The notes under the pieces: generated by a model
What the model saw: only the letters and a program-made list of their open reading frames with translations
The model's database searches: none
Told to the model about the DNA's origin: nothing
Assembly (NCBI RefSeq): GCF_036971445.1
Contig: NC_091479.1
Coordinates: 90,210,001-90,274,000 of the forward strand
Direction of reading: 5' to 3'
Source: Narcine bancroftii
Taxonomy: Eukaryota
Length of the DNA: 64,000 nucleotides
Shown here: positions 9,156-44,359 of the stretch, piece after piece
Layout of the letters: every line of letters begins with the position of its first letter
Numbering within the stretch: the first letter of the stretch is position 1
Made by a program: the position numbers and the translations under genes

Positions 9156-9175
9156 AAGTCAAATAATGTGGTTTC

Positions 9176-15759: not shown

Positions 15760-16225
15760 TAAGAGGCCCTTTGGGCCACAATGCCGTGCTGTCCTGTATA
15801 AACCCTACTGCACAACGATCTAACTTTTCCCTCCTCATACCCATAACCCTCAATTTTTTTCTTATGCACATTCTCCAATCCCGGTACGGCTTCTCTGCAC
15901 CTTCTCTGCATCCTTCATGATTAGGTGACTAGACACCAATATTCCAAGTGTGATCTAATGACTGTTTTATATAGCTGCAACATTACTTCACAGTTCTTGA
16001 ACTCTGTACCCTGACTAACAAAGGCCAGCACAGCGCACATCTTCTTAACCACCCTATCAACCTGCTCGGCAACCTTAAACAGACTGCAGGCCTTGACCTC
16101 AAGATCCCTTTGTTCCTCCACATTGCCATTAACCATGTACTCCATCTACAAGTCCGAGTTTCCAAAATGTATTACTTCACACTTATCTGGATTGGACTCC
16201 ATCTTCCATTTCAAATTTTCCAATC
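15760..16225 (-). mobile_element. CR1 LINE fragment
   Basis: EEQRDLEV..QVDRVVKK..MLQLYKTVIRSHLEY (ORF 15921-16145). Confidence 0.8.
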
Positions 16226-18114
16226 GTTGCCCTGCCATTAATCGCTTCGAAAGGAGATTGACCACATTATTGGAGCGTGTGTGTCATTAGGAGGACATTG
16301 AGCACAACTCCTATCTCAACTTAGCCACTGGAACCAGTAAACACTAAGCACTATTTTACACTCTCACTGCACTGAATAATATTTTGTTCACGCATCAACT
16401 TTACCAACAGAATGCAAGAGAATTTCCACTCTTTGTTTTCATTTAAAATAATTCAAAAACAGACCAAAAATGTTAAGACTAGAAACTGCAAATGCTGGAA
16501 TCTAAAACAAATAAAAAGCTAAAGAAACTTAGCTTAAGGAATAAACATCCTTTTATGACCAGTTATCTGTTGAGCCTCAATTACAGAAGCAACCTCTCTC
16601 GCAGAATGAACTGGAACAAAACCCAACCTGATGTTTACCAATGAGAATCGGTACTATGCACTGCTCCAAAACATTTCTTATAATCCCGTGAAAGGAATTC
16701 AGAATTGAATTCCCACTCAAGTCCAGGGGTAATGCTACCTGTGTTCTTTAATTTAGGGAAAGCAACTTCCAGATTCAGTTTTTGGAGCCTGTTGTTGAAG
16801 AAGCAATCAAGAAGAAATGGGCAAATAACTTCAAACCATCAGAAACCTGCTGAATCTTACCAAGTCTTTGGACAGGAAGGTCAGGCTGGTACACTAGGTC
16901 ATGAAGTTCAGCTTCTGATCATTACTTTGGTCTCTGACTGCAATTTTTGTGCAGGAAAGCTTGTAGGATTTAACCAGCAAGTTATTGGGAAGTCAGAACT
17001 TGCTGGAAAAATGATGTTCATAAACATTTTAAAGTAAATTTTCTCTACAGGCGCAATTTTCTCCAGGGTACAACTTCAAGTACATGGATCACCTCTGGTA
17101 CTTTATGCGTCAAGAGCTACAACGTCTGTTGTCCTGGACTCCTCTCTCTTGTTGAAAACGACCTTCCCTGCATCACCTATAGTGGTGAAAGACATTAACC
17201 ATGTACTCCATCTACAAGTCTGAGTTTCCAAAATGTATTACTTCACACTTATCTGGATTGGACTCCATCTTCCATTTCAAATTTTCCAACCCAATAGTTG
17301 CCCTGCCATTAATCGCTTCGAAAGGAGCCGTGTAACTTTCTGGAAGTCAGCAGTTGTGGACTGGCAGCATGTTATCGACATGTGGAGTTCACATCGCTCG
17401 GACCCCAAAAGGTTTTCCCTCACTCACCTCAACAAATCTGAAGCTGGTTGAAGAATAACGTGAGTGATACCAGCAACAACAGCCACTAGAGAAGCAAATC
17501 AGTAATAAAAACAGAGGAATCTTCATGTAGAAATGAAAGAATTCTGATTCATTTTCTTTCAGGTTTTTGTGATCATATTTTGAGAGAACTAAGGTATATA
17601 ACTGGGTAATTGGGGTCATTGACTGGGAGTATTTCCAAAGCAGTCAATGAGAGGGAACCAGTTGAATCAACATGTCCACCCTAGAATCAATGGTTCAAGT
17701 TCCTTTGCAATGACTGGTAAACTGGAAGCAAAGCTGACACTGGTGAGGGAGGTCCAGGCTTATGGATAAGATATTAAATTGCTGTTTCATCTGATCTTTA
17801 ATGATCATTTCTAATACTGAGTGAGACTTATCCCAATGTTCTGCCCAAAATTTCTCCCTCATCCAATAACTCAACAAGTGAATTTATCTGGATATTATCT
17901 CATTGACTTTTCAATTTGAAGAACTGTATGCTCTTATATTCCAGTGCAAAAATCACATGCATTTCAGATGCTGTCTGAAAAGTAAGCCTCATTATTCTCA
18001 TCTCCAAAATATTCCGCTATGTTTCCAGGAAATCATGGCATGGCTTTTCCTTAACCCCAATAAATTTTAATCGGCATGGTCAGGGGTTGCTCTTTCTGAT
18101 TACCCTTACTGGAA

Positions 18115-18310
18115 TGGGGCAGCATGGTTAGCGTGACATTATTACAGCGCCAGAGACCCAGCTGTCTGTAAGGAGTTTGTACGTTCTCCCCGTGTGTGCA
18201 TTGGTTTTCTCCGGGTGCTCTGGTTTCCTTCTACCCTGTAGGTTAATTTGTGTGTAATTGAGCGGCAGGGGTTTAAATGCCTGGAATCGGGTTCTACCGT
18301 AAGGTAAACA
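18115..18310 (+). mobile_element. tRNA-derived SINE
   Basis: Same head and core as the 11455 SINE. Confidence 0.75.
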
Positions 18311-19303: not shown

Positions 19304-19952
19304 CAGTAAAACCCCTGGTATCTGGCACCTATGGGGATCGGTAGATGGAGGAAAAGTGAGTTTTACAGTTGCTTGAGACAGCATGTCGCGTGAATAGAGA
19401 ACTAATGGTGAGGCACACCATTTTTAACCCTTTGGACGCAGGCCAATTTTAACCTTTCATCACACAGTATATAGTCCAGACTGGGACAACGGGTAAACCG
19501 CAGTATGAAGACCAGTTCGAACCAGCTGGTGATTGGGTGTAAAACCAGTCCTGGAATAGGGGGACATGGAATATATGCACTTGTTAGTAGTCCCTGAAAA
19601 CACGGACATGGAGTATATGTGTTTGTTGGGGGTCCCTGAAAACAGGGGACATGGAGTATATGCATTTGTTGGGGGTCCCTGAAACAGGGACATGGAGTAT
19701 ATGCATTTGTTAGTAGTCCCTGAAACAGGGACATGGAGTATATGTGTTTGTTGGAGGGGGGGGGGGGGGGGGGGAGGTCCCTGAAAACAGGGACATGGAG
19801 TATATGCATTTGTTGGGGGTTCCTGAAAACAAGGACACCAAGTCCAAAGGGTTAAACTTGCATATTTTTTACCCATTTATTTTCCGTGATCTTTTTTGCT
19901 GGTTGCTTGAGATTGCTGGTTGCTTGAATTCCGGATAATAAGGGTTTTACTG
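19304..19952 (+). mobile_element. TA-flanked pogo/Tigger-like MITE hosting a nested piggyBac-like element
   Basis: TA|CAGTAAAACCC ... GGGTTTTACTG|TA inverted termini. An uninterrupted sister copy lies at 25531-25757. Confidence 0.85.
19428..19851. mobile_element. piggyBac-like non-autonomous element with an internal ~40-bp minisatellite
   Basis: TTAA|CCCTTTGGAC ... GTCCAAAGGG|TTAA (TTAA at 19424-19427 and 19852-19855). About 6 units of GGACATGGAGTATATGCATTTGTTGGGGGTCCCTGAAAACAG at ~19560-19837. Confidence 0.85.
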
Positions 19953-22181: not shown

Positions 22182-22714
22182 CAATATATCTTTGCCAAGA
22201 TGCCAAGAGCTACTCACAGATCACCAAGCGACGCTTTCATCAGACTACAATAGATCTTTGCCAAGATGCCAAGAGCTACTCACAGATCACCAAGCGATGC
22301 TTTCATCAGACTACAATAGATCTTTGCCAAGATGCCAAGAGCTACTCACAGATCACCAAGCGATGCTTTCATCAGACTACAATAGATCTTTGCCAAGATG
22401 CCAAGAGCTGCTCACAGATCACCAAGCGAAGCTTTCACCAGACTACAATAGATCTTTGCCAAGATGCCAATAGCTACTCACAGATCACCAAGCGAAGCTT
22501 TCACCAGACTACAATAGATCTTTGCCAAGATGCCAATAGCTACTCACAGATCACCAAGCGAAGCTTTCACCAGACTACAATAGATCTTTGCCAAGATGCC
22601 AAGAGCTACTCACAGATCACCAAGCAAAGCTTTCACCAGACTACAATAGATCTTTGCCAAGATGCCAAGAGCTACTCGCAGATCACCAAGCGAAGCTTTC
22701 ACCAGACTACAATA
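22182..22714. repeat. Minisatellite, 8 x 66 bp
   Basis: Unit CAATAGATCTTTGCCAAGATGCCAAGAGCTACTCACAGATCACCAAGCGAAGCTTTCACCAGACTA repeated head to tail with no spacers. Confidence 0.97.
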
Positions 22715-22739
22715 TAACTCAACCTTCTCCAACACAACA

Positions 22740-24380
22740 AAGTAAAAGCAGAAACAGCTGGAAATATTCAGTTGGTCAGGCAGCAATGGTGAAAAGAAAA
22801 TCTTCCAAATCAATGACCCTTCCTCAGACTGGGTTGAGAGTGGAGGGATGTCAGTTGTCAGCGGGACAGGGGAGTGAGGAGCAAATCATAAGACCGAATG
22901 GAGATGGGCGAAAAGAGGACAGGTGATAAGAAGTAGGAGAACTGACCACTGGTGAGGCATTTATAAGAAGATCAGTGTGAAGGGGACTTAACCATGACAC
23001 TGGGAAAGAACTGGGAGAGCAGGTCACCTGAAGATGAAAAATTCAACATTCATTCAATAAGGTCGCAAAGTGGAGGGACAAGATGATGTTCTTCTGATTT
23101 ATGTTAGGCCTCACTATGGCTCTGGAAGAAGCCACAAACAGACAGAAATATCAAGCACCGTCATCCTGAGAACTGGCCCACCTCAGGGCTGGGTGCTTAG
23201 CCCGCTCCTCCTGAACAAGCTAATGGCCCATGACTGGAACGCCAGATCCAGCTCCAACATTTATCAAGTGTACCTGTCTGTCGGCGGCTTCTTTCACAGC
23301 CATAGTGAGGCCTAATGTTAACTGGAAGAACATCATCTTGTCTCTCCACTTTGCGACCTTATTGAATGAACGCTGAATTTTTCATCTTCAGGTAACCTGC
23401 TTTCCCAGTTCTTAAGTCCCTTCACACTGATCTTCTTAAAAATGCCTCACCAGTGGTCGGAACTCATAGTCCTTATCACCTGCTCTGTTTTAACCTATCT
23501 CCATACAGTCTTTTAGCTTCTCCCATCGGGAAATAGATACAGGAGTATCAGAGCCAGCACCACTAGGCTGAGGAACAGGCAGTGAGAATGCTGAACGACC
23601 AAAGGAACTGCTCTCACTAACCACGCGAGGCTCATATTTACAAAATAATATTTATTTGCATATACAATTACTTATCCTGCATATGCATCGTTGGTCTGTA
23701 TGTGTGCTATGTCTCGTCGTGTTCTGAGTGTTTCGCACCAAGGATTGGAGAACGCTGTTTCGTCGGGTTGTACCTGAGCAATCAGATGACAATAAACTTG
23801 ACTTGAAAGAGAGTAGGGCGGAGAATTCAAGTGCAGGAAAACGAGGCTCAGGGTCACCCCAACACACACGTTCTGCAGAGCGATCACCCAATCCGTGCTT
23901 GGTTTCTCTGACGTAGAAGAGGCAACGTTGTGAATACTGAATTCAGTCGACTAGATTGCAAAAAGTGCAAGTTCACCTGGAATGGTACGTTTGGGTCCCT
24001 GGATGGTGGGAAAGGGAGGGGTGAATGATTAGGTGTGGCAACTCCTCCATTTGCATAGGAAGGTGCCGTGGGAGACAGAATAGTGGGTGAGGTCAGGGAA
24101 TCATAAAGAGAACTGTCTCTGCAATATTTAGAAAAGGGATGAGAGACGAGGATGTGACTGGTAGTGGGATCTTGTTGTCAATGGCACAAATTGCCAACGG
24201 ATAATACGATGAATGTGAACCAGGTGGGGGGAGCTGAGGGAAAACGCTGAATAACAGAGGAGCTCCAGCAGGGTGAGAGCAGACTTGTGGGCGACTAAGG
24301 TAATATGTTTGAGAGCTCTGTTCATTAGTCAGAGGGAAAGCCATATTTCCGGAAGGAGGACAAATCTTAAGAATCAGAAG
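22740..24380 (-). mobile_element. Decayed Penelope-like element interrupted by a Rex1/Babar-like LINE (+, ~23146-23805)
   Basis: Penelope-like GIY-YIG and pLTR remnants on the minus strand. The Rex piece has TGPPQGWVLSPLL, LPSGNRYRSIRASTTRLRN and an AATAAACTTGACTTG tail. Confidence 0.65.
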
Positions 24381-25530
24381 AACTCATCATTTGACAAGTT
24401 CAATGCAAAGAAACTTAAGAGAAAGGAATGACGTTGTCACAGGAGGCAGAGGGAGAGTATGTATAGTTAAGGAATCTGTGATACCACACAGAAAATGGCC
24501 ATTCTTGTTGTTGTACTCTAAGAGAGGCACTGGAAGGTGATGATACAAGCAACTAAGGTGATAACTAATGCGCCAAAGCTGCAAGGATAGTTAAAGATTG
24601 CTCAAACTGAAGCAATACTTCCACAGGGATATACAATACAAACTTTAACTCTGTTGAGATCAAGCCAGGAACCTGGGTGCATGCTTTGAAAGGAACTTCC
24701 AGTAGGTTAAAGTAGGCAAACATATGGAATCCACTGCTAGGGGAACCAGATAATGTGGGAAAATTAGAGAGAATTGGATACATATTTGAGAGGGACTGAA
24801 AGGCATTAGTTTCCAGGATTTGCCAGATGGACTACAAAGTCTTCCATTACACTTTAAGGTCAGGTAAATAGGATTCTAGGGCATTTTGATATTTGACCAG
24901 CCCTTCTGACTCACTAATTGACCCTGGAGAGGAGTAGATCTGCCACTGAGGGCCCATAATTCTTCCTATTTAATTCAGATGCCTCTGCAAGCCAGTGCCC
25001 AAAATGAGTTGAGTGAACTTTGCTTGTCAAGCAGGAGAAAGATTGCAAATGTTTCAGCAAATTGTGTTCCTACAGGGAATGTGCATGCATTCCCATATTG
25101 TACTAACAGAAAATCTATTCTGTGGAGACTTCTCAGTTATTTGGTTTAAATGAGGTGATGGGATTTCCATGTGTCAAGCTGACGAAACAAAACTCACTGA
25201 GATGAGAACCAGTGCAAAAGAATTGCTGGTGTTAAGCTCCATTAATGGCTCGGATGGCAAAATCAGATACTTGTTTCTGTTCCACGGACCTCAGTGGGTG
25301 GGTGGCTGGGGGGCAGGGTCACTGCTACTAAATGCCATCCACTGATCCTCGCCAGAAAGTGCACATCAGTAGCTGCTAGTTTAGAACGCAGTCAGGCGTG
25401 GCTCCAGGGTATCAATAATGGAACAGCCTGCCAGTGAGACCGGTACCTTAAAATGTGCACTGATGTTGTGCCTTCCTCCACCCTGCGGCATTAAAGAGTT
25501 GCTTGCAGTTGCAGTTTCTTTTCCAGTGTG

Positions 25531-25757
25531 CAGTAAAATCCCTGGTATCCGGCACCTGTGGGGATTGGTAGATGCCGAATAAGTGAATTTCCCGGTTGCT
25601 TGAGACAGCCTGTTGCGTGAATGGAGAACTTATGGCGAGGCGTGCTAATTTTAAGCTTCCATATTTTATACCCATTTAGTTTCCATGATTTCTTTTTTTT
25701 CCCTGCTTGCTTGAGGCTGCCGGTTGCTTGAGTTCTGGATAACAGGGATTTTTACTG
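25531..25757 (+). mobile_element. pogo/Tigger-like MITE (empty-site version of 19304-19952)
   Basis: CAGTAAAATCCC ... GGGATTTTTACTG|TA. Single TTAA at the position where the sister copy carries the piggyBac-like insert. Confidence 0.85.
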
Positions 25758-26838
25758 TATTCGCATCTTTTTAATTTACATTAAGTATGAGAGTTGGAAA
25801 CAGGGAGGGAAGAGCAGAAGAAATATAAATGTATGCTCAACACTCCAACACTTGAATTCTCTGCCCTACTCTCTTTCAAGTCAAGTTTATTGTCATCTGA
25901 TTGCTCAGGTACAACCCGACGAAACAGCGTTCTCCAATCCTTGGTGCGAAACACTCAGAACACGACGAGACATAGCACACATACAGACCAACGATGCATA
26001 TGCAGGATAAGTAATTGTAATGCAACAATCGTTGCAGATAAAACTCTGATTAATTAGTACTGCAGGAAAAAAAAATTCTCCATTTGAAAGAGAAGAGGCA
26101 TTCTCAATATGGCACACAAATGTTGGAGGTCTATGGAGGGTTAACCGGAATTGTTCGGGCTGTAATATCTCTCCTGGCTTATGGCCAAAAAACTGCAGTG
26201 ATGCTGAAGCTTTGAAAATTAATGTACTCATTATGGTGCATTGGTTTTGTGTGACATCTGATTTTCCAACCAAACGTTGCATTTCACGAGAAGCTGGACA
26301 CATTAGCTTGAAAATTTTAAAAAAAAGGATTCTTAACTTTCCAGTCTCTGGATTGTCACCATCACACTGACAAGAATGTGATCTACAGACTACATTTCTA
26401 ATTGTGGATCAAGTTCGCTCCTTCCACTCCGGTTACCAGTCCGCGCTATACAAGAAAAGGTTAGTTTAAATAAAAAGGCCATGTGTATGTAACCCCAAAG
26501 TCTTCAACAAGATCAGAAGTTTTTAAACTGATCCAGACTACCACATGGGAAAGACATCTGTTACGATAGTGAAGGAAACAGATGGAAAAGGAAGAGATTC
26601 CTCAGAATGTAGTGTAAGATTTACATTATCCGCCATGAACTTCCATGTAGTCCCCATGTTTATACAATTTATCACTATTTCCTCAGACAGCTGAGATTAG
26701 GAAACCCACATGAGCTCATGTCCTTGTTACAGTATTAACTTCAAATTTGAAAGCAGTTCAGACTCTCTATAATCCTTATTTTCGATACTTTTTTGTTTCA
26801 CCCATTATTTTATATTGCAAAACAAAAGTCCACACTAC

Positions 26839-26871
26839 CTGAGCAGGCTTCTTCTGGACCTCTTGCTGCGG
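26839..26871 (-). CDS. HMGA2: HMGA2 exon 4 (33 nt), PQQEVQKKPAQ
   Basis: Minus strand: ttattacAG|CCG CAG CAA GAG GTC CAG AAG AAG CCT GCT CAG|GTagtg. Canonical AG/GT, phase 0, and matches mammalian exon 4 PQQVVQKKPAQ at 10/11. Splices in frame to the 9223 exon. Confidence 0.95.
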
Positions 26872-28439
26872 CTGTAATAAAATAAAATTACAGTTAGATG
26901 CCATCCAGTATTAAAGCTGTTTATCTCCCTGTAACCGTAAGCACATCAACACATCAGTGTGAAATAGCCTTGCCTGATTTGCGTAAAAGGAAAATGGACC
27001 TTCACGTTCATTTACTTCCACATCTCTCATTTCTTCATAACCAGTAAGCTTATACCTGCATATCCCTGTAACCTTTCACAACAGAGGAAATGTTATGCTA
27101 AGAAAATAGGGCTTTGGTTACGCAGTCTGAATTAATTTGACTTCTGCGTGCTGTGGCTAAAAGAAGCACTCCGAGTGAGTTGCCAGCTCGCTAGCTTTTT
27201 TTTCCTATGAATTAATTCCTGACAGTTCAATGAGGGAAAAGACAATGTCTGAATCAAGGCCAGTGTTGGCTCACTGCCCAGTATGTGTCGGAGTAATTTT
27301 ACCAGCTGCCCTTCCAAAAAAAACACTCAATCCTCCCATAATCTCAACAAATGGACCATCGATGATGCAGAGACAGAAAGGCGCGGGGGCAGGGGTTTGC
27401 CATTGCTTATTCTCAATCCTTCTTGTCCCATCAGGCAAGCTCCAGGCTAGGCCCCACCATCTGATTTTTATGAATGGCTCAGGAAAACAGATTGAGTGTG
27501 ATATATTTCTAATTGTCATTCATGAAAAAAGGCAGGATTTACACATTGCTCAAGAAACCTGGTAACAATTGAAGTTGCAGAACCTTATTAACAAGTGCCT
27601 CAGGTTGTACTTCAAGAGTTATTGGCTTTTGGGTTCTTCCGAAAGATTTAACCCTATAAATACCTGGTTTCCTTGCATCAAAAGAAACGGGATTTGCACA
27701 GACAACACCCTCCGGTCATTTTGCATTGCTAAAATATATTGCTTTAATACTATGTCAGGCCATGAATCAAAATGCACATTGTACTAATTTATATCAATAA
27801 CAAAGAAATGCTCTGCTCAGAACTGCTTTAACAGCACAGATGAAATACTACACCCCACAGCAAAACCTGCATTGTTGCTTAAATACATTTGAGCAGTCTT
27901 AGAAGCTCATCAAATTATACTTAACAGAAAAGGAATTTTCTGTCAGTAGAAAATGACTTGTAGGCCAGGCTCTGTGAAGTGGGGTTTTCTTTAAAACCTT
28001 TTGTTTTGTTTTCCGAGCTCTCCAACTTTGTTTTTTCCAACAAATCTACAAAAAAACTTCCAGCCAGTGTAACAAGTGGTGGGTACATAGCCCGAGGCTG
28101 TCTGCTATTAATTGCCTGACACCTCTTACACAGCCTATTGTAAGACTGAGCCTCCACAGATTCCAAATTGGAAATGAGACACCTTTGCAGTTCATGGAAA
28201 TAAAATATTCCATTTATGTCATGGGAGGGAGAGGAAGAGGAAAACAGCTTCAGAATGTGTAGAATTAAGCAGATTGAGTAACTTTTACAAAATTGTTGAG
28301 CTCTTAAACTAGTCCAAACCTATATTTTCCTTTATGTAGTGCAGTGTTTTTACCAAATGATACCTTTACATTGTAGGATGCTTAGCTGTTACCAATCAAC
28401 ATTTCTTCAGAATATAGGAAATTGATTACCATTCTTAAT

Positions 28440-28625: not shown

Positions 28626-28633
28626 CTCTAAGG

Positions 28634-29623: not shown

Positions 29624-31599
29624 CTCTAAGGGAAGGCGACCCTCTTATTTTTAATTTCGACATACAGCATGGTAACAGGCCATTTCGGCCCACGAGTCCC
29701 TGCCGCTTAATCACCCTACAACGCTGCGGGCCGAAATGGCCTGTTACCTTGCTCTATATCTAAACTAAAAATTAAAAGGCTGGCCATCCCTGCTCTAACA
29801 GAAAAGTAGGTTTTAGTGTAGCACGGTGTGATGCTGAATAGTAGATGGAACTGCGATTTCAGAGTTCATGGAGCCTGTTTTGATCCTCAGTCCAGGCAGC
29901 GTTCTGTGTGGAGTTTGTGTGTTCTTAATGTGACCATGTGGGTAGTCACACAGCTCTGAAGGAGGCTTTTTGATCCATGGAGCCAGCACCAACCATTTAT
30001 CATTCATCCCCTCTTTTTTATTTTCCCACAACTCCACCTAGATTTCACCATTCACCTGCACAATAGCAATTTATGGTGGGCAAATTAACCACACAATGTA
30101 CACTTACCCGCGCCTTTGGAGGAAACCAGAGCACTTGAAACCACCCACTCATGTGGAGATAGAATGTGCCAACTCCACACAGACGACACTGGAGGCCAGA
30201 AATGAATCTGGGCCACTGGTGCTGTGAGGTAGCAACTCTACCAGCTGTGCTTGCCCTTAAATCCAAAGATGTGGTTGGTACATTTATTCCTTGATCCTAT
30301 TGTCTGTGGACAATAATGAAAATTGAGATAAAGTTGATGGGCATGTGATAAAGAATGTTACAGGAAAACTTGAGGAAACAGGATTGATCGGATTGGTGAG
30401 ACTTGATGGACTGCAGTGCTGCCTAGAAAGGAAACATGGTAACGATAGTCTTGGACCTTGAAGGTCCTTTAAATATTTAACATATCACTGGTATGATGCC
30501 GCCTTCGCAATGCAGCACTGGCTTATTTCACCAGCACTGTTGAAAATCAAGGGCAGGTGGCAGATGGAATCAAGGCATGACACAGGGAGAGTTGGAAACC
30601 AACAGAGTTGTGGCTGCAGAACCCACCATTACGTTAAAATGTACTTGAATGAGCATAACAAAGGGGGTAACCTTCAAGCCTACACACAGAGGTTTTGCTT
30701 TATTTGTCACAGTGAGAAGTGTTCCTCTGCAAACACGCTATCAGGTTTTCTCTAACGTTTACAGAGTGTAGGATTGCAGTGAAAAGAAAGATCAATTAAC
30801 AGCAGCATGAGAGAACAATTGTGTGGTTCATTCAAAAACCTGATGGCTGCAGGGAAGAAACCGCCTTTAAGCCTGTTGGTGTGCGCTTTCACACTCTTAA
30901 GCCTTCTCCCTGACAGGAGAAGAGAGGAGAGAGTTTGTCAGGGGCATTGGTGGGGGTGGGGGGTGTCTTTCAGTATATTGCCTGTCTTTCCAAGGCTGTA
31001 GAAGATGTAGTTGAAGTTGATGGAGGGGAAGTTTTTGTTTTGTTCTGAGTTGCATTCTCTACTTTTGGCAGCTTCTCCCAAGAATGAGATAGAAAGTGTA
31101 ACCCAAACAGGCCCATCTTTGAACAGGCTATTCATGGGCCAAGATCTCTTTTGGTGGGGAAGTCTCCATAATTTTAATTCCTCTGACCACCAAACCAGCT
31201 TCCCTGTATTTCCATATTTAATGAAAGTATTTACGAGCAACTAAACAATTCCAACACCATGCTTTGACACATCATCACTCCAATTTCCTACCACTCCTGG
31301 TCCGTCCAGGTTGCTGACTCCAGAAGTTATTAGGGATCGTCCCTCCCTGCATTTTGTGCAAGCGAGTCTTCGCTGTTTCCTGCAGTTTGAGCTGGTTCTG
31401 TGATGCAGCAGATTTCAAGTGGGTGTTCATTTGGACATTTTGATCCTGTGGTGCGCACAACTTATCTCTCCGTTCATATTATTCAGGTTTGTCTCAGGAT
31501 CAACATGATATATTTTTCTAGAAACCCATGGTCATGAAGCATTACAAATCGCCAAAATACTCTCTATCCTGCTGTGACTATGAAGCTGCGATCACAAGA

Positions 31600-32050: not shown

Positions 32051-34719
32051 GACTTCAGCTTCTTTTCTGTGCCAGTCCCCCAGTCCAATGGTCTAGAATT
32101 TGGGTGGAAGGTTAAAAGGGGGAAAGACATCACAATCTAAAGTCAAGGGACATTACCCCTGGTGCAGGTCCCAGTCAAACAGTGGGGGAAGAATTGATCT
32201 ACTTAAAACATGAATTGGTGGCATGATGGTGGAAAGTTACTGAGATGGAGAGTGGGGGAAGTCGACGAGGAGGGAAGTGTAAGCCGAGAAGTTAATTTGT
32301 GCCTCTTTTCCCTGCCCTCTCTTTGTGTGCTTTGTCTGCTCAAAGATAGCCTTCAGATTTGTGAAACACCAGCTCCAGATGAGATGCCAAGGCTAATGAA
32401 TCTCACATCAGAGCACCTAGCTATTAGAAGGTTAACATATTAATCATTGTCGAAATAGAGCAACTATCATCAGATCATGTTGTTCACATGATCAAATGTC
32501 AAAGAATGCCCTCAACCAGTGAATCCACTTGAATATATTAAGTTAAACAGGAAAGTCTGCAGACGCTGTGCTTGCGGTGCAATGGCAGGAGAAATTCAGC
32601 AGGTCACGTAGCATCTATAGAAAGTAAAGGGCAACCAAAGTTTCAGGGCAGGTGACTGAATAAACAGGTACGGTGAGTGCAAAAATTTTGTATTACTTTA
32701 GATTTGAAAAGGCTTATGAATACAACCTAAAAAGATGAACAGGACTTTATTAAGCACTTAAGAAATAAACAGCTCCTTGAAACTGCTATTCAATAATTGT
32801 TGGTTTCCCTGCTATGTATCTACTGACCTCCTATAATCTACAATTTTTATTTGTAGTTTGAAAATCCAACATGATGTATTGACTGTATTCAACAACTGAT
32901 TCAACTAAAACATCATGATCGTGATCCCGTCATTGTTCCTGCACCATATTCATTCAGCACAGGATCTGGGCTGAGCCAGGGTGTCAATACTTATCTATGG
33001 GGACCACACAGCGATGGTGGATACCATTACGAAACAACACAGAATGAGCAGTTTTTGCTCACGGTTGATGTATTAATTAAATGCCTCAACGCCAATGGAA
33101 ATATAATGTCATTTTTTTTTTAAGTTATCAAATTCCTTACAGCTACTCACCTCCATTTTAAGTAAACTCATGCAACCATTTTTTTCTGAACAACCAGGTT
33201 CAGAAATACTTTGTGAAGGATAAGAAGTTGTAAACACCCAACTACTGCCAACACAGCACACCCCAACAGCTCAGCTTCTCCCAGCCAGTGGCCCAGATCG
33301 GCAGTCATGTACTTCAGGAATGGCCAGTCTCCTCAGTCGTAAAACTGCTGAATCAATATTGCCTACTCATTTGCCTACTCATAGTCCATTCCATTCCCTT
33401 TGCCACTTTCACTGCTCCTTCATTAAATTGAACCATTAGATCCACCTATTGCTGCCCCCCACTTCCCATTTTCCCATGTGGAGCTTAGGAAAGATGAATT
33501 ATGATGTTAGCTATCATCAACCAAGGTAGTCACAAATTTCTAGCTGAAGCCAGCCAAAACCAATGATCTGTTGTACCATTGAATGCAATCCCAGTATTCA
33601 CTGACAAATCCCACTTAAAAATGTAACTGTGGTCTGTATCTCATTATTCCTAACAACTGAATATTTAAAGCAGCTTCAATTTTGCCAAATTGATACATAT
33701 TATCTAACAGAAACAGGAATTTGATAATGCTGATATGTTCAAAGGAGGGTTCCAATATGTAAATTACTCTTCACGCTTTCATAGAGACACATACTCCAGA
33801 ATCTATGTGACGTTACCAGAAAGCATGTAATGAACTGTGGGATAGGTCAGCCAATATCGCTTGGTAGGACAAGTTCACACGGGAACATTGTAAAATGAAA
33901 CCTGTCAAGTCACACCTGGAAACTGAAGTGTACTTTAAAATTTGAACTTGGGCCAAAACTTAGCGCAGATTAACTCTGTTCAGTCCTTAAACTCAAACTG
34001 CACCTGAATGCACAGCCACTGCCTAAGAAATAGGAGCAGGAATGCTCTGGCATTCAGCAAGATCACGGCTGATTTGGCTGTGGACTCAGCCCGATTTATC
34101 TGCCCATTCTCTACAACCCTTAATTTCCCAATTCTTCAAGAATCTGTCTTAACTATCAGTACAACTCTAAATGAAGTTCGCCGTGATTAGCCAACAACTG
34201 TACTCTGTTCTAATAGAAGAAAGGCCATTTCTTCTAAGCCAAAGGATCGGCTAAAGAGAGTTGTTCACTTTTTAGTGATGAAAAATATTGAAGTGCTTCG
34301 CAGATTCTGATACAAGTTTCTCAGAGCAGCTCCTCAGTGTTCAGGGGAGATGGTTGCATCTTGTACCAGGCATTCAGCAAGATCACAGCTGATCTGGCTG
34401 TGGACTCAGCCCGATTTATCTGCCCATTCTCTACAACCCTTAATTTCCCAATCCTTCAAGAATCTGTCTTAAATATATTCAACCAGGCAGAATTTGCTTC
34501 TTTCTCGGATAGAGAATTCCACACTTTTACTGCTCTTCTGATTTCAACATGAGGCAATAGAAAATTCTCAAAATTTTCAACAGATTCTAAGGTAGTTGTG
34601 ATGGGATTAGTTGATGGACAAGAGAAACAAGAGTAAAATATCTATGAGATACTATCCAAGTAATGTTCATAAGATTCAAGATTATTTTATTGTCATGTAA
34701 TAAAACAGAAAATGCAGTA

Positions 34720-34795
34720 CAATAAAACCCTGGTATCCAGCACCTATGGGGATTGGTAGATACCAGATAAATGAATTTTCTGGTTGTTTGAGTTC
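34720..34795 (+). mobile_element. Truncated copy of the pogo/Tigger-like MITE
   Basis: TA|CAATAAAACCCTGGTATCCAGCACCTATGGGGATTGGTAGATA. Confidence 0.7.
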
Positions 34796-35200
34796 CAGCA
34801 GCTGCACTGCACAAAATTTCCTCAAGGCAGACAAAGACTTGCTATTGGCGGAAATTGCCCCCCAGAACCCCTTACGGTCAGAGAAAGAGAAGCAAAAGAG
34901 AGCCCTTCCCCCAGAGTCACCGAATGTCCGTGGATTCACCTCCAGTGTTCCTGCAGCCACAGACTTGTCCAAATCATGATAATGTGACAGGAAGAAAACG
35001 TTCCAGAAGGTGAATCTATAGAACAGCTTTTCTTTGTTAATGCTCTTCAAACTTTGCAAATGGTGAAAGCAAGTTGAACCAATAAACAGGATTTTTAAGA
35101 TGGGAAAAAAGTGAGAAAACCCTTTTATGTACTGTGGTGGAGAAGTTCACCAATAATAGCTTAGTCGCACTACTACTGGTCATTTCTAGTTTAGCTAGGG

Positions 35201-36508
35201 CTATTGGTTCTCAACTTTTTGCTTTCCACTCACATACCACTTTAAGTAACCTCTTAACTATGCCCTAGGTGCTCTGTGGTTAGTAAGGGATTACTCGCAC
35301 CAACCCTCTTTTCAATCTTCTTCAGCATGATGCTGAACCAAGCCATGAAAGACCCCAACAATGAAGACGCTGTTTACATCCGGTACCGCACGGATGGCAG
35401 TCTCTTCAATCTGAGGCGCCTGCAAGCTCACACCAAGACACAAGAGAAACTTGTCCGTGAACTACTCTTTGCAGATGATGCCGCTTTAGTTGCCCATTCA
35501 GAGCCAGCTCTTCAGCGCTTGACGTCCTGCTTTGCGGAAACTGCCAAAATGTTTGGCCTGGAAGTCAGCCTGAAGAAAACTGAGGTCCTCCATCAGCCAG
35601 CTCCCCACCATGACTACCAGCCCCCCCACATCTCCATCGGGCACACAAAACTCAAAACGGTCAACCAGTTTACCTATCTCGGCTGCACCATTTCATCAGA
35701 TGCAAGGATCGACAATGAGATAGACAACAGACTCGCCAAGGCAAATAGCGCCTTTGGAAGACTACACAAAAGAGTCTGGAAAAACAACCAACTGAAAAAC
35801 CTCACAAAGATAAGCGTATACAGAGCCGTTGTCATACCCACACTCCTGTTCGGCTCCGAATCATGGGTCCTCTACCGGCACCACCTACGGCTCCTAGAAC
35901 GCTTCCACCAGCGTTGTCTCCGCTCCATCCTCAACATCCATTGGAGCGCTCACACCCCTAACGTCGAGGTACTCGAGATGGCAGAGGTCGACAGCATCGA
36001 GTCCACGCTGCTGAAGATCCAGCTGCGCTGGATGGGTCACGTCTCCAGAATGGAGGACCATCGCCTTCCCAAGATCGTATTATATGGCGAGCTCTCCACT
36101 GGCCACCGTGACAGAGGTGCACCAAAGAAAAGGTACAAGGACTGCCTAAAGAAATCTCTTGGTGCCTGCCCCATTGACCACCGCCAGTGGGCTGATAACG
36201 CCTCAAACCGTGCATCTTGGCGCCTCACAGTTTGGCGGGCAGCAGCCTCCTTTGAAGAAGACCGCAGAGCCCACCTCACTGACAAAAGGCAAAGGAGGAA
36301 AAACCCAACACCCAACCCCAACCAACCAATTTTCCCTTGCAACCGCTGCAATCGTGTCTGCCTGTCCCGCATCGGACTGGTCAGCCACAAACGAGCCTGC
36401 AGCTGACGTGGACTTTTTACCCCCTCCATAAATCTTCGTCCGCGAAGCCAAGCCAAAGAAAGACTTAAGGTGGTAGGGGAGCTGAGAGAAAAAGGTTGTG
36501 AACCACTG
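35201..36508. mobile_element. Palindromic hAT MITE (~140 bp) split by RTE copy 2
   Basis: Termini (c)TATTGGTTCTCAACTTTTT / AAAAAGGTTGTGAACCACTG and inner ACCACTTTAAGT / ACTTAAGGTGGT. 8-bp TSD AGCTAGGG (35193-35200) / AGTTAGGG (36509-36516). Confidence 0.8.
35294..36462 (+). mobile_element. RTE-clade LINE copy 2, 5'-truncated, inserted into a hAT MITE
   Basis: ORF with LLFADD RT motif and C-terminal CX2CX12HX3C. 3' end GAAGCCAAGCCAAAGAAAG. The ORF-track N-terminus (MVSKGL) comes from the host MITE. Confidence 0.95.
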
Positions 36509-36874
36509 AGTTAGGGAAAGGCCTACCTTAATGCTGTTCATACCAATCTAACCTGGTGCAAGATGCAACCATCTCCCCTGAACACTGAGGAGCTGCTCTG
36601 AGAAATTTGTATCAGAATCTGCGAAGCACTTCAATATTTTTCATCACTAAAAAGTGAACAACTCTCTTTAGCCGATCCTTTGGCTTAGAAGAAATGGCCT
36701 TTCTTCTATTAGAACAGAGTACAGTTGTTGGCTAATCACGGCGAACTTCATTTAGAATTGTACTGAATTTACACTTGTAGAGTCTTAAAGGCAGAATGAT
36801 GCATATTTTAAGGGACTGAAGAAGCAATTATGAACTTACAGGAAGTAACTGATATAATGAAACATATAGCAGCT

Positions 36875-37343
36875 TTTCTTTGGCTTGGCTTCGCGGACGA
36901 AGATTTATGGAGGGGGTAAAAAGTCCACGTCAGCTGCAGGCTCGTTTGTGGCTGACCAGTCCGATGCGGGACAGGCAGACACGGTTGCAGCGGCTGCAGG
37001 GGAAAATTGGTTGGTTGGGGTTGGGTGTTGGGTTTTTCCTCCTTTGCCTTTTGTCAGTGAGGTGGGCTCTGCGGTCTTCTTCAAAGGAGGTTGCTGCCCG
37101 CCAAATTGTGAGGCGCCAAGATGCACGGTTTGAGGCGATATCAGCCCACTGGCGGTGGTCAATGTGGCAGGCACCAAGAGATTTCTTTAGGCAGTCCTTG
37201 TACCTTTTCTTTGGTGCACCTCTGTCACGGTGGCCAGTGGAGAGCTCGCCATATAACACGATCTTGGGAAGGCGATGGTCCTCCATTCTGGAGACGTGAC
37301 CCACCCAGCGCAGTTGGATCTTCAGCAGCGTGGACTCGATGCT
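36875..37343 (-). mobile_element. RTE-clade LINE copy 3, 5'-truncated, 11-bp TSD
   Basis: TSD ATATAGCAGCT at 36864-36874 and 37344-37354. Same 3' end as the other copies. Confidence 0.95.
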
Positions 37344-38670: not shown

Positions 38671-41600
38671 TCCTTTCACTCAACTGATGGGGACACTAGT
38701 TTCTAGAAATGTTGATCGGCAGATAAACTTTGTCAGATATTTTCCCTGTTCTTATTCAAAATGCTGCCATGGGATATTTAACATCCACTTCAGAGTCCAA
38801 ATTAAACCTCAGCTTAACATTTCATCCGAAAGTCAGCATATGGGCCAGTGGAACACTCCCTCAGTGTTACCTTGCCCAGAGTTGAGCCCAAGCGTATGGG
38901 TTTGAATCTGGAGCTTGCCAATAAGAGAACTATCCCCTCTGTCACAGATGATGCATTCATTTAAAGCTCTTGCAACTAAGATGACTTACTGCTTCAGAAT
39001 AAACAAATACCTTGGAATGGAAGAGATAGTGACATCCTGACAGGAAAGTGTTTTCTTTCAGAAGATTTGAAGGCAGGAAGCAAAGTGATTTTTGCACAGA
39101 AAGTTTCAAAAGGTCGGGATGTAATGTCAAAAAAAAGTTGCTCTGCTGAGGGGAGCCTGGAGTGAGGAACGGGTGATAATCCGGTGTCTGAGGAGTGGGA
39201 CGATGAACAGCTGGAGAGCATCGGTCACGGAGGTTGAAGCAAGTCCCCGGAGGATTTGAAAATTAGGCTTTTGAAGTCAATTCACTTGGGTACAAGGAGC
39301 CATGGGCCGGGAGGTTCTGAATTAGTTGGAGTTTGCAGAGGGTGAAGTGGGAGGTGGGGAAGGGGTAGGGGCAGGGAACTAAAGAGAACCAGATGTCTGG
39401 CAAGGAGAAAGGTTGGAAATGTCAGGCTTAGAAGGTTAAGAAAGTGTGAACTGAGCTTAGCTGCTGGCGAGAAAGTGGTCGGGCTTTAGGCAGCCAATAT
39501 TATGTAGTCCAAACATATAATACTCCATAGTTTACAGCAATAAACCACATGTAGGAGCCCCAGCACAAGCCAGACTTTATTCAAATAGATGGAAAATTGG
39601 GCAATTTTTTTTTGGTGACATGATCCTCAGCGTCAGATTTTCCTCTGGGTAAAAAGGCAAAGAAAATTACCCAACTACATTTCATTTCAAGTTGGGTACG
39701 GATGGAGTGAGATATTGTGAGATATTGTGAGATCCTCAGTTGTTTGAATAATTAAGGGGATATTTTTAATCTATTCCAGCAAATAGACAAGGCCTATTCT
39801 GATATCTCTTAAACAGCAGCAGGAAAACCACACATTTTGGCAGAGAATTTTTTTTTGTTGTTGAAGAACTGCTTTGGAGATTAACTGCCAGAACACAGGG
39901 TGGGTAGGGATTGATTTTGATTCTATAAAAAGCAACTATGCAGTTCCCAAATAATAGAAAAGAAAGTGTTAGTTATAATAGTATTGCCCATCTCCTAAAA
40001 GTCTTGACAAGTTGACAGATACCAGGTTTTTCCCCAAATTAGCTTTGTGTTATTTTTCTCTAATTTCCCTTTTCCAGGATATGCCATGATTAAAGGCCAG
40101 GCATATGACGCATGGAGCTACATTATTTCTGAATGGGTGGCATGTAATAGGTTGCCTTTTCCCATCTTTGCATTCATCACATTCACCGTCTGTGACAATG
40201 ATGTAGTTTTGTCTGCTTATCAACTGGTAGTCACCTTCTGGGAGCCCTGTGTGAGTTAAAGCATGCAGGATCAGGAAATGCAGGCTGAGACATCAGAGGC
40301 CAATTAGGCCAAAGTGTAATTGGCCTCCATTTTAAAGTCAGACATTATCATTATTCGTTTGAAATTTTTAAGTTTCCTTTCTGCAGCTCATTTACAAATA
40401 ATTAACAACTTGCATTTAATTAGCTCTTTTAATGCAAAGGTCGTTAAAGGAAAGTTATCAAATCAAGTTTAACACCATGTCACATTAAGAGGTAATAGTT
40501 AGAATAACCTCGTGGTAATGGGTAGATTTTAAGGAATGTATGATGGAAACTTCCACTGCAGAATTCGTAGACAGGATGTACTGGTTAAAAAAAAATCACA
40601 GGGTCAAATAGAAAACACGGCAACTCCATTACCTGCCTCACATCTGTATGCTGCTGTTCCTCTATCTCTTTTCTCACATCCCACTTTACCCTGCTCTGAG
40701 AGAAGGCTTACTGGACTACTTCCTGGATTGGGAGGTTATCTTGAGGGTCTTTACTGGGTGGAGAGAATAGACTTCCTCAAAGGTGGTTTTCACAGTAGAG
40801 ATAGATAGGTTCTTGGAAAAACAAAGGGATAGAATGTTACCAGAGAATGTGGAGTGGAGGCTACAATCAGTCCAGCCATCATCATGTTGAGAAGAAATGG
40901 CTCGAGGTGGAGTGACCTGCTCCTCCTATTTCTTATTTTTATTGTCTTAAATTTTCCTTTCACTTTTTTAAAAAATCACTGAAGATAGGAAATAAGAGGT
41001 GGGGAGGCAGGGAAGGAGGACACCGAAAGTGGCAGAGCAGTTTCAGGGAGACTGTAGCCCCTGGAGTCTCCCCATCCTTCCCCTGCCCTATCACTTCCTC
41101 CTCTTCTCACCTTCCCACATCAATTCTGACTCCCGTCACCCCTCCTCGCAACTCCCCAGTTTTTGCTGAATGTTAACCTTCACTCTCCGTTGAGGGTCGT
41201 GGACAAAGGCCTGAAACTTACCGCAAATATTTTCCAAATTTTCTCACCTACTCTACCTTTCCACCCTTTTTTTTGGCCTCAAAACAGGCAGAGCCCAGAA
41301 GCAAATAGCGCAATCATTTAAGCAAAATGGAGTGAAGTAGCAAGCTGCCTCTTCTTATCCATATACCTTACAGCAATTATAAATGGCCACAATTAGCACT
41401 GGTCCAGAAAATGTAGAATTCTGATATTCCAGTGCCATGTGGTCGATGCTCCTGACCATTTCAATCTGCTAACAGCAAATATGCCCAAATTTGAAGGCCT
41501 TATTCCATGGGTCACGATGGAATAATCGTCCAACAAGGGACAGCAAATTGTGGAATTCAGAACAAAGACAGGACCCTCAGAGAACTGTGGTTCTATCAAC

Positions 41601-41758
41601 ATTTATGGGAGGAAAGGTGTCAGGCCATTTCAGGTCAAGATCCGAAATCAGGACTAAGTAGGAACAGGAGAGAATGCCTGGAAATAGCAGTGTGTAGATG
41701 GGTAGGATGGAAGCTGGTAGGTGATAGGTGGAACCAGGTGGAGAGGATGTTGGGCGGG

Positions 41759-42095
41759 TGGAACCAGATCTGGGAGAGGGTCTGGGACAGTGCCTTGTAG
41801 GTGATAGGTGGGGCCAGATATGGGAGAGGGGTCTGGGACCGTGCCTTGTAGGTGATAGGTGGAGCCAGATATGGGAGAGGGGTTTGGGACCGTGCCTTGT
41901 AGGTGATAGGTGAGGCCAGATATGGGAGAGGGGCTTTGGACCGTGCCTTGTAAGTGATAGGTGGGGTCAGATATGGGAGAGGGGTTTGGGACCGTGCCTT
42001 GTAAGTGATAGGTGGGGTCAGATATGGGAGAGGGGTTTAGGACTGTGCCTTGTAGGTGATAGGTGGGGCCAGATAAGGGAGAGGGGTCTGGGACA
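41759..42095. repeat. G-rich minisatellite, ~6.5 x 51 bp, inside a Penelope-like remnant (~41530-42730, minus)
   Basis: Unit CCTTGTAGGTGATAGGTGGGGCCAGATATGGGAGAGGGGTCTGGGACCGTG. CCTTG recurs at 41793, 41844, 41895 and 41946. Confidence 0.93.
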
Positions 42096-44359
42096 GGTGT
42101 ACAGCTTCATTACTGTGTGTGGTAACTTTGGTGAGAGTTGACCAACAGTAACGGACTCAATTTCTCTAATGCCTGATGCCTCAACAGGTGGAACCAGAAG
42201 AGGAAGGAACATTGGGCAGGTGGAAACAAGTGGGTGGAAGGAATAAAGGAAGAGGAAAACTAGATGGACAGGTGAGTATGCGTGGAGGAGAGCACCAGAG
42301 GGTGTGGGTGTCCTGAGAATGGAAAATTCAATATTCATACATTGGTTGTAAGGTATGAAGTGGAATATGAGATTTTGTTTCCAAGTATTTGTTTGCCCTT
42401 CCCAAAGCCATGAGAGAAAAAAAAACGCTGAGGACAGACAGGTCATTATGAAAGTTGGAGAAGCATTGGATTCAAACGTGGCCGGAAGCTTAGATGACCA
42501 TGGAAGACAGAGTGCAGGTGATCCTCAAAATGATCACCTCGTCTCCACTTGGTTTCACCAACATAAAGGGGGCCACGTCAGCAATGAGTGAGGTTGGCCA
42601 GGGAGGAAAAGGTGGAGTGAATCTCAGAGGATGGCTTCATCCAGCATGGAGGCTGCTACATCTTGCATTGGATCAAAGGGCTAGGGCCTCGGAGGATCAA
42701 GGGGCAAGGGTAGTTGGGTGAGGAAGGCATGATTGGAACTGCAAGCACAATTCAGACAGGAAGAACTCAAATGAGTTTCTGAAGTAACTCAGCCTGGATT
42801 TGATTACTCCTCTGTCACTCTATCTAAGCACATTTTCAATTGCATGGCATTACAATACACAATGTCATGCAATCAATTTTCTAGATCATTAATTTTTAAA
42901 CTTAAGAAAATACAGCTGGAGATGACCAATTTGCTCCATAACTTGTAGCAGAGGACAGGTTTTGCACCAATTTATTCACATTTAGAAAACATACAAGAAA
43001 TATTTTCAAACTGTTTCCGCAGCATTGTTGGAATAAATGCGAAAGCCAGATTATATGAATTGAGGAATTCCCGCAGAATTCCAATGAAAAATTTAAGGCA
43101 AGAAGTGCTGCTAATTGGAACAATGGTAAATCGAATCTGATCAGAACGATGATATTTGATGTTTTTAAATCAGTAAACACAACGAAATGCAAAACCAAAT
43201 ATTCTTCAATCGTTTTCAAGGGCAATCGATGGCTCCTCATCATGGTCACTGCCTTTGGAGACTAAAAGACCGTGTAGCTATAAAATGGCGTTGATCTAAG
43301 AGTACCTTGTGAGTAAAGAGATCACGAGAATATGACCCGCATTTCTGCACCAGTTACAGTAGAATCTCTGCGACACACTGCAAAGTCCATTGTTCGCTGT
43401 TCACGACCAGCAAAAAGAAAATAAGGAGTGGAAGGTGTACAGCTTCATTATTGTGTGCAGTAACTTTGGTGAGAGTTGATCAACAGTTATGCATACAATT
43501 TCTCTAATGCCTAATGAACTACAAAGATTTTAACAATGACATTCCGACCTCCTTTATTAATTACTTCTGCCAAGATGCAAGACTTTATGTATGAAATGCT
43601 ATTCTGAAATAAAAAATATAACAAGCAGTGGAATCAAATATTCCACTTTCTAACTGTGGAAATTAATCAGACCTAGACCTCAAAAGGAGTTTTTGTTTCG
43701 GATCGGTGGATAGGATTGGTACAATGAGGGCCATACAGTAGTCCAGCTACGTCACGGCTCCCATGACCAGGATTCATCCCTAGCCTTTGGTGCTGCCTGT
43801 GAGGAGATTGATATTCTTTGCAACTGTGTGTGTTTCCCCTGGGTGCTCCAGTTTCTTCCCATATCTCAAAGTCATTCAGGTTAGAGTAGGTTCATTGATC
43901 GCTATAAATTACCCTTAGTGAATGGTAAAATCTGGGAAGGTAACAATAGAGGGGGGGGGGGATTAAAATGAGTAATGTAAATTGATGTTTGATGGGCAGC
44001 ATGAAATCGGTGGGTCAAAGTGCTTTATGTGCTTCTGTGCTTTATGACAAAGTCACTCTGGCATTTAAGTGCTCAATGGTTCTTTCCATCTCCTGCTAAT
44101 CACTCTCTCTCAGAGAAAGTTGATTTCTGTCTTTTAAGTTGCTATTTCTTCCTTCTGGTCAAGCAATCCCTCCACTCAATCTCATCGCGAGATAGAAAAC
44201 TCAGAAACATAGAGAAAGGACGTCAAGAAGTGAAACATGAAAATCTGTAGGCACTGTGGTTGAAGTAAAAACACAATGCTGGAGAAACTAAGCAGGTCAA
44301 ACAGTGTCCTTTATATAGCGAAGATAAAGATAAACAACTTGCAGAAATATAGAACATTG

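Follow-up and report, generated by a model that had tools for sequence, protein, structure and literature searches.

The question raised by this locus is how several short segments, each lying close to a second copy of itself, came to be duplicated within a 64,000-nucleotide stretch of the Narcine bancroftii genome (NC_091479.1, positions 90,210,001 to 90,274,000; hereafter, the window). A first-pass annotation had suggested an undescribed system of local copying, and had offered germline repair by local copying or reverse-transcriptase template jumping as its mechanism. Our analysis makes it likely that the five pairs are neutral scars of local copying that arose at different times, four through germline break repair and one through a LINE insertion.

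Results

Five pairs of short local copies

Self-alignment of the 64-kb window recovered all five annotated pairs (E1 to E5) at, or a few bases from, the positions given for them.

16127..16256, + strand: E1, likely donor; 5' end of an old LINE fragment that we take to be CR1-like, plus 43 bp of adjoining sequence
17193..17327, + strand: E1 copy, likely acceptor; direct, 98.5% ungapped identity, one 5-bp slip duplication
22890..23145, + strand: E2 donor; left flank of a LINE insertion, within an older host repeat, presumably Penelope-like
23271..23512, - strand: E2 copy; inverted left-flank copy that stops at the insertion point, with a collinear LINE piece on either side
23656..23833, + strand: E3 donor; 3' end of the LINE together with 27 bp from its right flank
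25849..26025, - strand: E3 copy; inverted, 99.4%, with a 7-bp slip repeat at the left junction and a 6-bp hairpin at the right junction
34156..34370, - strand: E4 copy; inverted 215-bp copy of 36552-36766, 98.6%, with a 2-bp microhomology (GG) at the right junction
36552..36766, + strand: E4 donor; bordered on each side by the 3' end of a young RTE-like LINE copy
42091..42182, + strand: E5 copy; direct, 88.5%, inside a presumably Penelope-like repeat beside a 51-bp minisatellite
43430..43520, + strand: E5 donor; without a further copy in the window

The duplicated segments measure 88-239 bp (median 177), and donor and copy lie at most 2.4 kb apart in every case. Identity ranges from 87 to 99% across pairs, which bears out the earlier suggestion that the events differ in age. 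Transitions and transversions between copies number 1/1 (E1), 20/11 (E2), 1/0 (E3), 3/0 (E4), and 7/3 (E5), a transition excess that is expected of genuine mutations. When the five RTE-like copies and the tandem arrays were excluded, the pairs of at least 80 bp and at least 85% identity in the self-BLAST lists were E1-E5 and a duplication flanking E4, all within 2.4 kb; the chance that all five pairs would fall within this distance is about 2e-6, with thresholds chosen after the fact. We found no third full copy of any insert or junction in the window. A search of the window for further doublets (exact repeats of at least 14 bp, outside arrays and RTE-like copies) returned 27 seeds less than 3 kb apart. 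These belonged to the five events and a fold-back or to smaller features (two terminal inverted repeats, three short tandem duplications, and one palindrome); two matches are likely due to chance, and there was no sixth event.

Composite repeat families, or chimeras of assembly or amplification, would offer a different account of these pairs. E1, E2, and E3 include repeat sequence, amplification is known to produce local inverted chimeras, and seven of the ten copy junctions are without read support. We compared contigs from two sequencing runs, X1 and X2, possibly of the assembly's own sample, with a stretch that contains the E2, E3, and E4 junctions (six of the ten copy junctions; E1 and E5 fall outside it). 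Contigs spanned three of these six, namely the two E2 junctions and the one on the right of E3, without a single difference and at a depth of 7-8. This is the depth of unique DNA, whereas true repeats reach bins up to 4e5, so none of the three bridged junctions behaves as a dispersed composite element. For the left E3 junction and both E4 junctions there was no bridging contig among the pieces listed. A contig from a further run, X5, which belongs to a second study, carries the LINE 5' junction of E2. Copies that differ by up to 13%, mostly by transitions, and the lack of a third junction copy in the window also speak against chimeras and composites, which we consider very improbable overall and already largely refuted for E2 and E3. 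The junction contigs at single-copy depth thus agree with the annotation's view that independent transposition and composite families do not explain the copies. That only three of ten copy junctions are found in run contigs, from a sample that may be the assembly's own, counts against our preferred explanation of local-copy scars as well.

For none of the events did we see an empty (pre-insertion) site, and therefore direction of copying, deletions, and true microhomologies are inferred throughout. Among the pieces listed for a related organism (organism C), which are 3.3-4.5% different in three of the eight listed records and more in the remainder, no contig lay over an acceptor site of E1, E3, E4, or E5. 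A metagenome scan with a repeat motif for long fish or shark contigs yielded three contigs of 1.6-2.8 kb, which had no local repeats and no BLAST match to the window at E 1e-5.

A LINE insertion with a probably captured flank

The E2 pair (22890-23145 and 23274-23512, inverted) is 87.0% identical with 17 gap columns, and its copy sits between two pieces of one LINE that share the same orientation.

23147..23270, + strand: internal LINE piece; reverse-transcriptase region on the sense strand, 5' end of the insertion
23509..23806, + strand: LINE 3' part with tail, presumably Rex1-like; its first four bases, TCTT, are common to the inverted copy

The reverse-transcriptase assignment of the internal piece is based on its translation and on an RVT_1 match that is weak and below the cut-off (E=0.027). 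A Pfam search of the Penelope-like and Rex1-like C-terminal pieces gave no match, and these family names are our assumption. Each of the two runs, X1 and X2, provided a single contig spanning both E2 copy junctions, and contigs of X1, X2, and X5 crossed the LINE 5' junction. In the run contigs, loose ends of other copies of the family start at 23509. When the LINE flanks were joined in silico, they aligned with a different copy of that repeat (score 92.5, compared with 46 for the best of 100 shuffles), and E2 is thus a LINE insertion that interrupts a recognisable target. The candidate explanation that E2 is the inverted end of a Penelope element itself was ruled out, because the host repeat continues past the LINE.

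The inverted segment is a 239-bp copy of a 256-bp flank, ends at the junction, and retains two target bases that are missing from the flank. This exact end point suggests that the copy was made in the same event as the LINE insertion. As for its age, one organism C contig appears to cross the LINE 3' junction by about 30 letters, and another, provided that its listing is complete, has copy-type letters at five of six diagnostic E2 positions; these weak hints would place E2 before the split from organism C.

E2 has a counterpart in human L1 biology. There, 22 templated flank copies were found among 3,598 L1 insertions, described in tumours, with templates of less than 250 bp within 15 bp of the site, and an experimental system gave 3+3 such cases (bioRxiv 10.1101/2024.08.27.596794; PMC11702581). 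Like those copies, E2 has a short template that starts a few bases from the insertion site and was apparently integrated during LINE insertion. Unlike them, E2 is a germline event, is old (13% diverged), and involves a Rex1-like element rather than L1; moreover, its copy lies between two collinear LINE pieces, with the sequence from the reverse-transcriptase domain to the tail skipped. We propose that reverse transcription of the Rex1-like LINE would have halted after ~300 nt, that the cDNA end may have used four bases to anneal some 257 bp away in the left flank, which it then copied up to the nick, and that it would then have returned to the LINE RNA for ~124 nt more. The reverse-transcriptase jump that the annotation had put forward is plausible for this one event, as is break repair for the other four.

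Four events resemble known local duplications

In an earlier description, Thomas et al. reportedly presented related "doublets". Repair-mediated duplications (RDs), which are two-copy local duplications, were described and counted in ten vertebrate genomes, mammals, chicken, and zebrafish among them, by Pace et al. 2009 (PMC2671141); with the L1 flank copies described as well, the suggestion of an undescribed system finds no support. In that survey, RDs have a mean size of 162 bp (median 147, maximum 619), a distance peak at ~1.2 kb with 824 of 1,136 within 5 kb, and a range of ages; their junctions carry microhomology, filler, a deletion, or a short target-site duplication (TSD) of 4-21 nt, without poly(A), and their rate follows L1 activity in primates.

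E1, E3, E4, and E5 appear to match RDs in size, distance, and junction scars. Their copies of 135, 177, 215, and ~90 bp, respectively, exceed the 50-bp minimum for RDs (range to 619 bp), and the gaps to their donors (937, 2016, 2182, and 1255 bp) fall between the RD bounds of 50 bp and 5 kb. None of the four has a poly(A) or poly(T) tail. Microhomology, filler, or a small deletion is found in three of them (E3, E4, and E5), as judged without empty sites, and at E3 and E5 any TSD is short (7 bp). The set studied by Pace et al. differs in that it contains no cartilaginous fish and excludes repeat sequence, which inserts here often contain. No report of RDs in sharks or rays was found among the literature matches listed.

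The E1 alignment has 128 matches, two substitutions, and one 5-bp indel. Its left boundary cuts through continuous repeat sequence, and 17193..17327 is the likely acceptor. Neither junction shows a clear microhomology word or filler (again judged without an empty site), and a 936-bp insert with a 130-bp duplication could account for E1 in place of a repair copy. The E3 pair is 7 bp longer than first annotated, and a LINE tail lies within it, followed by 27 bp of flank. Its 6-bp hairpin and 7-bp slip repeat were looked for post hoc; in a sample of 3,000 random positions, 0.7% and 1.2%, respectively, reached as much. E5 has a 5-bp microhomology (AGGTG) on the left, a 7-bp word at both ends, and a short filler on the right; a longer degenerate repeat around it is weak. 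Both E4 and E5 interrupt host repeats.

E4 is additionally bordered by a duplication that the first-pass annotation did not contain.

34049..34156, + strand: first copy of the E4 flanking duplication; 108 bp, in an old CR1-like 3' region
34369..34476, + strand: second copy; direct, 96.3% identical to the first

At 108 bp, this duplication far exceeds the TSDs of RDs, which sets E4 apart from them and counts against our explanation; E4 is more aptly described as a tandem duplication that carries a templated insert. Its acceptor site would have been duplicated as from staggered nicks or re-copying.

Polymerase-theta end joining and MMBIR/FoSTeS share with these events microhomology, slip or hairpin fillers, the E4 combination of tandem duplication and insert, and a fold-back at 29.6 kb. 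Typical theta inserts are much shorter and closer to the break, and the enzyme is not readable from sequence.

An RNA template is improbable

Alternatively, all copies could be RNA-templated, with cDNA of pre-mRNA or LINE read-through patched into breaks as class 2 TSI or orphan transduction. All events lie inside a transcribed gene, an RT-competent family was active, and the E4 donor directly adjoins the 3' ends of two RTE-like copies. In addition, class 2 TSIPs are germline insertions without tails and with junction microhomology and added bases (PMC5110952). The same source presents TSIPs as patches drawn from distant parts of the genome, probably through RNA. The donors here, by contrast, all lie no more than 2.4 kb away; moreover, tails are absent, and donors lie on either side of their acceptors and in both orientations. 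We therefore judge this reading unlikely.

Fold-backs and the host gene

Two fold-backs had also been annotated, of which the one at 29.6 kb held up.

29629..29791, no strand assigned: fold-back; a head-to-head pair of SINE-like 3' ends whose 63-bp arms (85.7%) extend ~18 bp past the repeat tail

Contigs span its right end, and a short template switch is a plausible origin. The arms of the other, at ~5245-5380, are only 28-29 bp long and are pieces of a dispersed repeat (14.4, 38.3, and 44.2 kb), presumably Penelope, for which Pfam gave no match. Both arms match dispersed copies, and we read this fold-back as two ends of the repeat. Inverted end arrangements are given as typical of Penelope (PMC3846280).

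The window contains two exons of a gene that we take to be HMGA2-like.

9176..9223, - strand: last coding exon, EEGEGTSSQESTEED*
26839..26871, - strand: 33-bp exon, PQQEVQKKPAQ, flanked by AG/GT

Mammalian HMGA2 intron 3 is a site of somatic rearrangement, and all five events fall within 27 of the 64 kb, which had suggested a local hotspot in a fragile intron. Against this, the clustering does not reach significance (P=0.11), the last intron holds E1-E3 while only E4-E5 are upstream of the 33-bp exon, and no event was found in the upstream intron beyond 43.5 kb (~20 kb). A hotspot at this locus thus has little to recommend it.

Discussion

We favor local-copy scars of ordinary kinds as the explanation for the five pairs. 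For E1, E3, E4, and E5, a free 3' end at a germline break would have annealed by 0-5 bases to nearby DNA, copied 90-215 bases from a template 1-2 kb off on the same or sister chromatid, and then come off and been rejoined, leaving short fillers of slip or hairpin type. The route may have been synthesis-dependent strand annealing or polymerase-theta end joining, which the sequence does not separate. The breaks behind the three young events (E1, E3, and E4) might have come from the endonuclease of the RTE-like LINE active at that time: the five RTE-like copies differ by 0.3-2.4% (10 of 10 pairs), the age class of these events. This hint is a weak one, as the link is a coincidence in age and four of the five RTE-like copies have no templated insert.

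The apparent density, which the ordinary model alone leaves unexplained, is far above published values. Five events in 64 kb correspond to 78/Mb (95% CI 25-182), and the three events with less than 1.5% divergence, coeval with the RTE-like LINE burst, to 47/Mb (CI 10-137). Published RD densities, measured in another way, are 0.62/Mb of TE DNA in human and 0.19 in zebrafish, with 15 human-specific proximal RDs (PMC2671141). The mechanism could therefore be the same but its rate one to two orders of magnitude above that of mammals, relative to point mutation and retrotransposition. Three of eight datable young insertions in the window are templated, compared with 15 of 3,364 human polymorphic insertions (Fisher P=7e-6; for the non-repeat event E4 alone, 1/6, P=0.03), and at a true density of 5/Mb, at least four events in 64 kb would have P=3e-4. 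On the other side, the window was flagged for its cluster and is not a random sample; it is a single window with crude denominators, and at 20/Mb it would be nothing unusual (P=0.04). Furthermore, the Pace pipeline accepts a case only where the acceptor falls in an annotated TE, the two TE halves are in register to within 30 bp, and the insert is single-copy and non-TE (PMC2671141). By our reading it would drop most or all of the five events, which makes the published densities floors. Events per unit divergence are also inflated where substitution is slow, and one shark has a rate of 7e-10 per generation. On balance, a raised rate is possible but somewhat doubtful. It is unlikely, though worth stating, that local templated copying is a major germline insertion route in this lineage, contributing 10-100x more per substitution and retrotransposition than in mammals via LINE endonuclease breaks; if true, genomes with slow point mutation would be steadily rewritten by short local duplications.

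These events add clean instances of an already known mutational process, from a lineage absent from the published survey, and E2 appears to be a well-preserved germline case in which a LINE other than L1 captured its flank. Should the density prove to be genome-wide, vertebrates would differ greatly in how point mutation is balanced against repair-made duplication. The view of shark and ray genomes as slow-changing would then need qualification, and thousands of datable scars would become available for testing the link to LINE bursts.

Sequence context

The window is repeat-rich vertebrate DNA (64 kb, GC 41.9%, a single 148-bp gap), presumably of a cartilaginous fish given its repeat families, and contains two exons of a gene that we take to be HMGA2-like, with exon numbering assumed likewise. 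A long AT-rich stretch without repeats beyond its last coding exon (~7400-9175, minus strand) is probably the 3' UTR. The repeats presumably belong to CR1, Rex1, Penelope and RTE; among them, Pfam confirmed a single domain, the RVT_1 reverse transcriptase of the long RTE-like copy (E=1.6e-34).

Exons, young LINE copies and tandem repeats in the window
9176-9223, minus strand: one of the last two coding exons, AG/GT splice sites
26839-26871, minus strand: one of the last two coding exons, AG/GT splice sites
733-1476: young RTE-like LINE copy, 5'-truncated
35294-36460: the same
36875-37343: the same
44768-45097: the same
~50443-52780: the same
22182-22714: minisatellite, 66 bp x8
41757-42094: minisatellite, 51 bp x6.6
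19561-19754: minisatellite, 41 bp x4.6
58423-58495: short young tandem duplication, 35 bp x2, 100%
39707-39733: the same, 10 bp x2.7
7967-7998: the same, 17 bp x1.9

Five RTE-like copies in 64 kb constitute a recent, dense burst, and the longest has an open frame of ~770 codons with the RT domain retained. Two of them lie tail to tail (35993-36461/36875-37343, 414 bp between, 97.9% identical over 469 bp) as a stable inverted pair, which could fold in the pre-mRNA. The 5' junction of the copy at 44768 (44745-44770) carries an 11-bp duplication of adjoining flank, a miniature templated insert. All three minisatellites arose within old repeats. A repeated 7-bp word bounds the 66-bp unit, and the 41-bp array sits inside a TTAA-flanked element (19423-19856) with 15-bp terminal inverted repeats.

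Five local copy pairs are present

All five pairs of locally copied segments proposed by the first-pass annotation were found in the window.

Copy pairs, with orientation and identity
E1: 16127-16256 and 17193-17327, direct, 98.5%
E2: 22890-23145 and 23271-23512, inverted, 87.0%
E3: 23656-23833 and 25849-26025, inverted, 99.4%
E4: 34156-34370, copy of 36552-36766, inverted, 98.6%
E5: 42091-42182 and 43430-43520, direct, 88.5%

Their differences show an overall transition excess. Once the five RTE-like copies and the tandem arrays were left out, E1-E5 and a duplication flanking E4 were the only pairs of at least 80 bp and at least 85% identity. All lie within 2.4 kb (P about 2e-6 for random placement of five, thresholds post hoc), and a search of the window for exact repeats of at least 14 bp brought up no further event.

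We aligned four read runs to 22720-35290, which holds six of the ten copy junctions. Contigs from X1 and X2, runs of one sample that is possibly the source of the assembly, span three of the six (both of E2, the right one of E3) with no differences and at depth 7-8, that of unique DNA; repeat bins reach 4e5. A run from another study, X5, spans the LINE 5' junction of E2 (36 letters, no differences), and among the matches listed none crosses the other three junctions. Because the junction contigs show no differences at unique-DNA depth, an assembly artefact or a composite repeat family is an unlikely reading of the pairs.

Two fold-backs had also been proposed. That at 29629-29791 was confirmed and may plausibly stem from a template switch; the other, at ~5.3 kb, proved to be two dispersed-repeat pieces with 28-bp arms, arranged as at 2635-3231 and resembling Penelope's usual inverted ends. 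A Penelope-like fragment at 2635-3281 carries part of its end in inverted orientation (116 bp at 77.6%), arranged as at 5205-5388. The fold-back at 29629 begins at the end of a ~1-kb high-copy hAT-like element (28630-29625, 8-bp target duplication). This element is very deep in X1, X2 and X5 but almost missing, in bin 29020-29439, from X6, a run of a related organism, and is therefore lineage-specific.

Anatomy of the copies

E2 differs in kind from the other four. The sequence to the left of 23147, joined to that on the right of 23806, aligns as one host repeat with another window copy (score 92.5 vs 46 for the best of 100 shuffles); therefore, a LINE inserted there. The insertion runs from 124 bp of RT-region sequence through an inverted left-flank copy to the LINE's last ~300 bp, both LINE pieces sharing one orientation. 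The copy terminates at the insertion point, retaining two target bases missing from the flank, and its other end has TCTT in common with the LINE.

E4 has an A-X'-A layout, in which a 108-bp stretch stands on both sides (96.3% identical) of the 215-bp inverted copy of 36552-36766, with a shared GG at the right-hand junction. Its donor lies between two young RTE-like copies, ~1 kb from the acceptor once the intervening 1.17-kb RTE-like copy is removed. In E3, the 3' end of a LINE and 27 bp of its flank were copied inverted 2 kb away; one junction bears a slip repeat of 7 bp and the other a hairpin of 6 bp (matched by 1.2% and 0.7%, respectively, of 3,000 random positions). Beside the 51-bp minisatellite, E5 interrupts a Penelope-like repeat; copy and donor have AGGTG in common at the left junction, and the right one carries short filler. 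In its likely direction, E1 copies one end of an old CR1-like fragment together with 43 bp of neighbouring sequence; it might alternatively be an insert of 936 bp accompanied by a duplication of 130 bp.

Known classes and local density

The pairs had been put forward as an undescribed system. In humans, Pace et al. 2009 (PMC2671141) counted 824 duplications lying within 5 kb (median 147 bp, distance peak ~1.2 kb) with microhomology and filler and without a tail. They report the same class from rodents, dog, cow, chicken and zebrafish; its rate tracks L1 activity. In two further studies, 22 of 3,598 L1 insertions in long-read tumour data had templates <250 bp from <=15 bp of the site, and experiments yielded three target inversions and three templated inserts from nearby. 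Since both this class and L1 templated insertions are published, the system is not undescribed. Among the matches listed, a literature search returned no measurement of such duplications in sharks or rays.

Nor was the suggested HMGA2 intron 3 hotspot supported: P for clustering is 0.11, and the last intron holds three of the events. The rate of local templated copying in this lineage might be far above that of mammals, which we consider doubtful. Five events in 64 kb give 78/Mb (CI 25-182), and Pace et al. give, per Mb of TE DNA, 0.62 for human and 0.19 for zebrafish, a comparison that is not like-for-like, as their stricter filter would apparently discard most or all of E1-E5. Templated copies make up 3/8 datable young insertions here vs 15/3,364 polymorphic human insertion events; however, the window was chosen for its cluster, and events per unit divergence are inflated where the clock is slow (7e-10 per generation in one shark). 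If the true rate were 5/Mb, such a window would still be rare (P=3e-4 for at least four events), but at 20/Mb it would not (P=0.04).

Mechanism

For E1, E3, E4 and E5, break repair with a short excursion onto neighbouring DNA is the best model; synthesis-dependent strand annealing, polymerase-theta end joining and microhomology-primed replication are indistinguishable from sequence as its route. For E2, a cDNA end may have invaded the adjoining flank, run off at the nick and returned to the RNA, which most simply explains why the copy ends at the nick. The three young events are 0.6-1.5% diverged and the E4 flank duplication 3.7%. Because the five RTE-like copies (0.3-2.4% apart) fall in the same age class as these three, the data suggest, but do not show, that the breaks behind them came from RTE nicks. 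Together, the five events are real, most likely neutral, mixed in mechanism and of a known kind.
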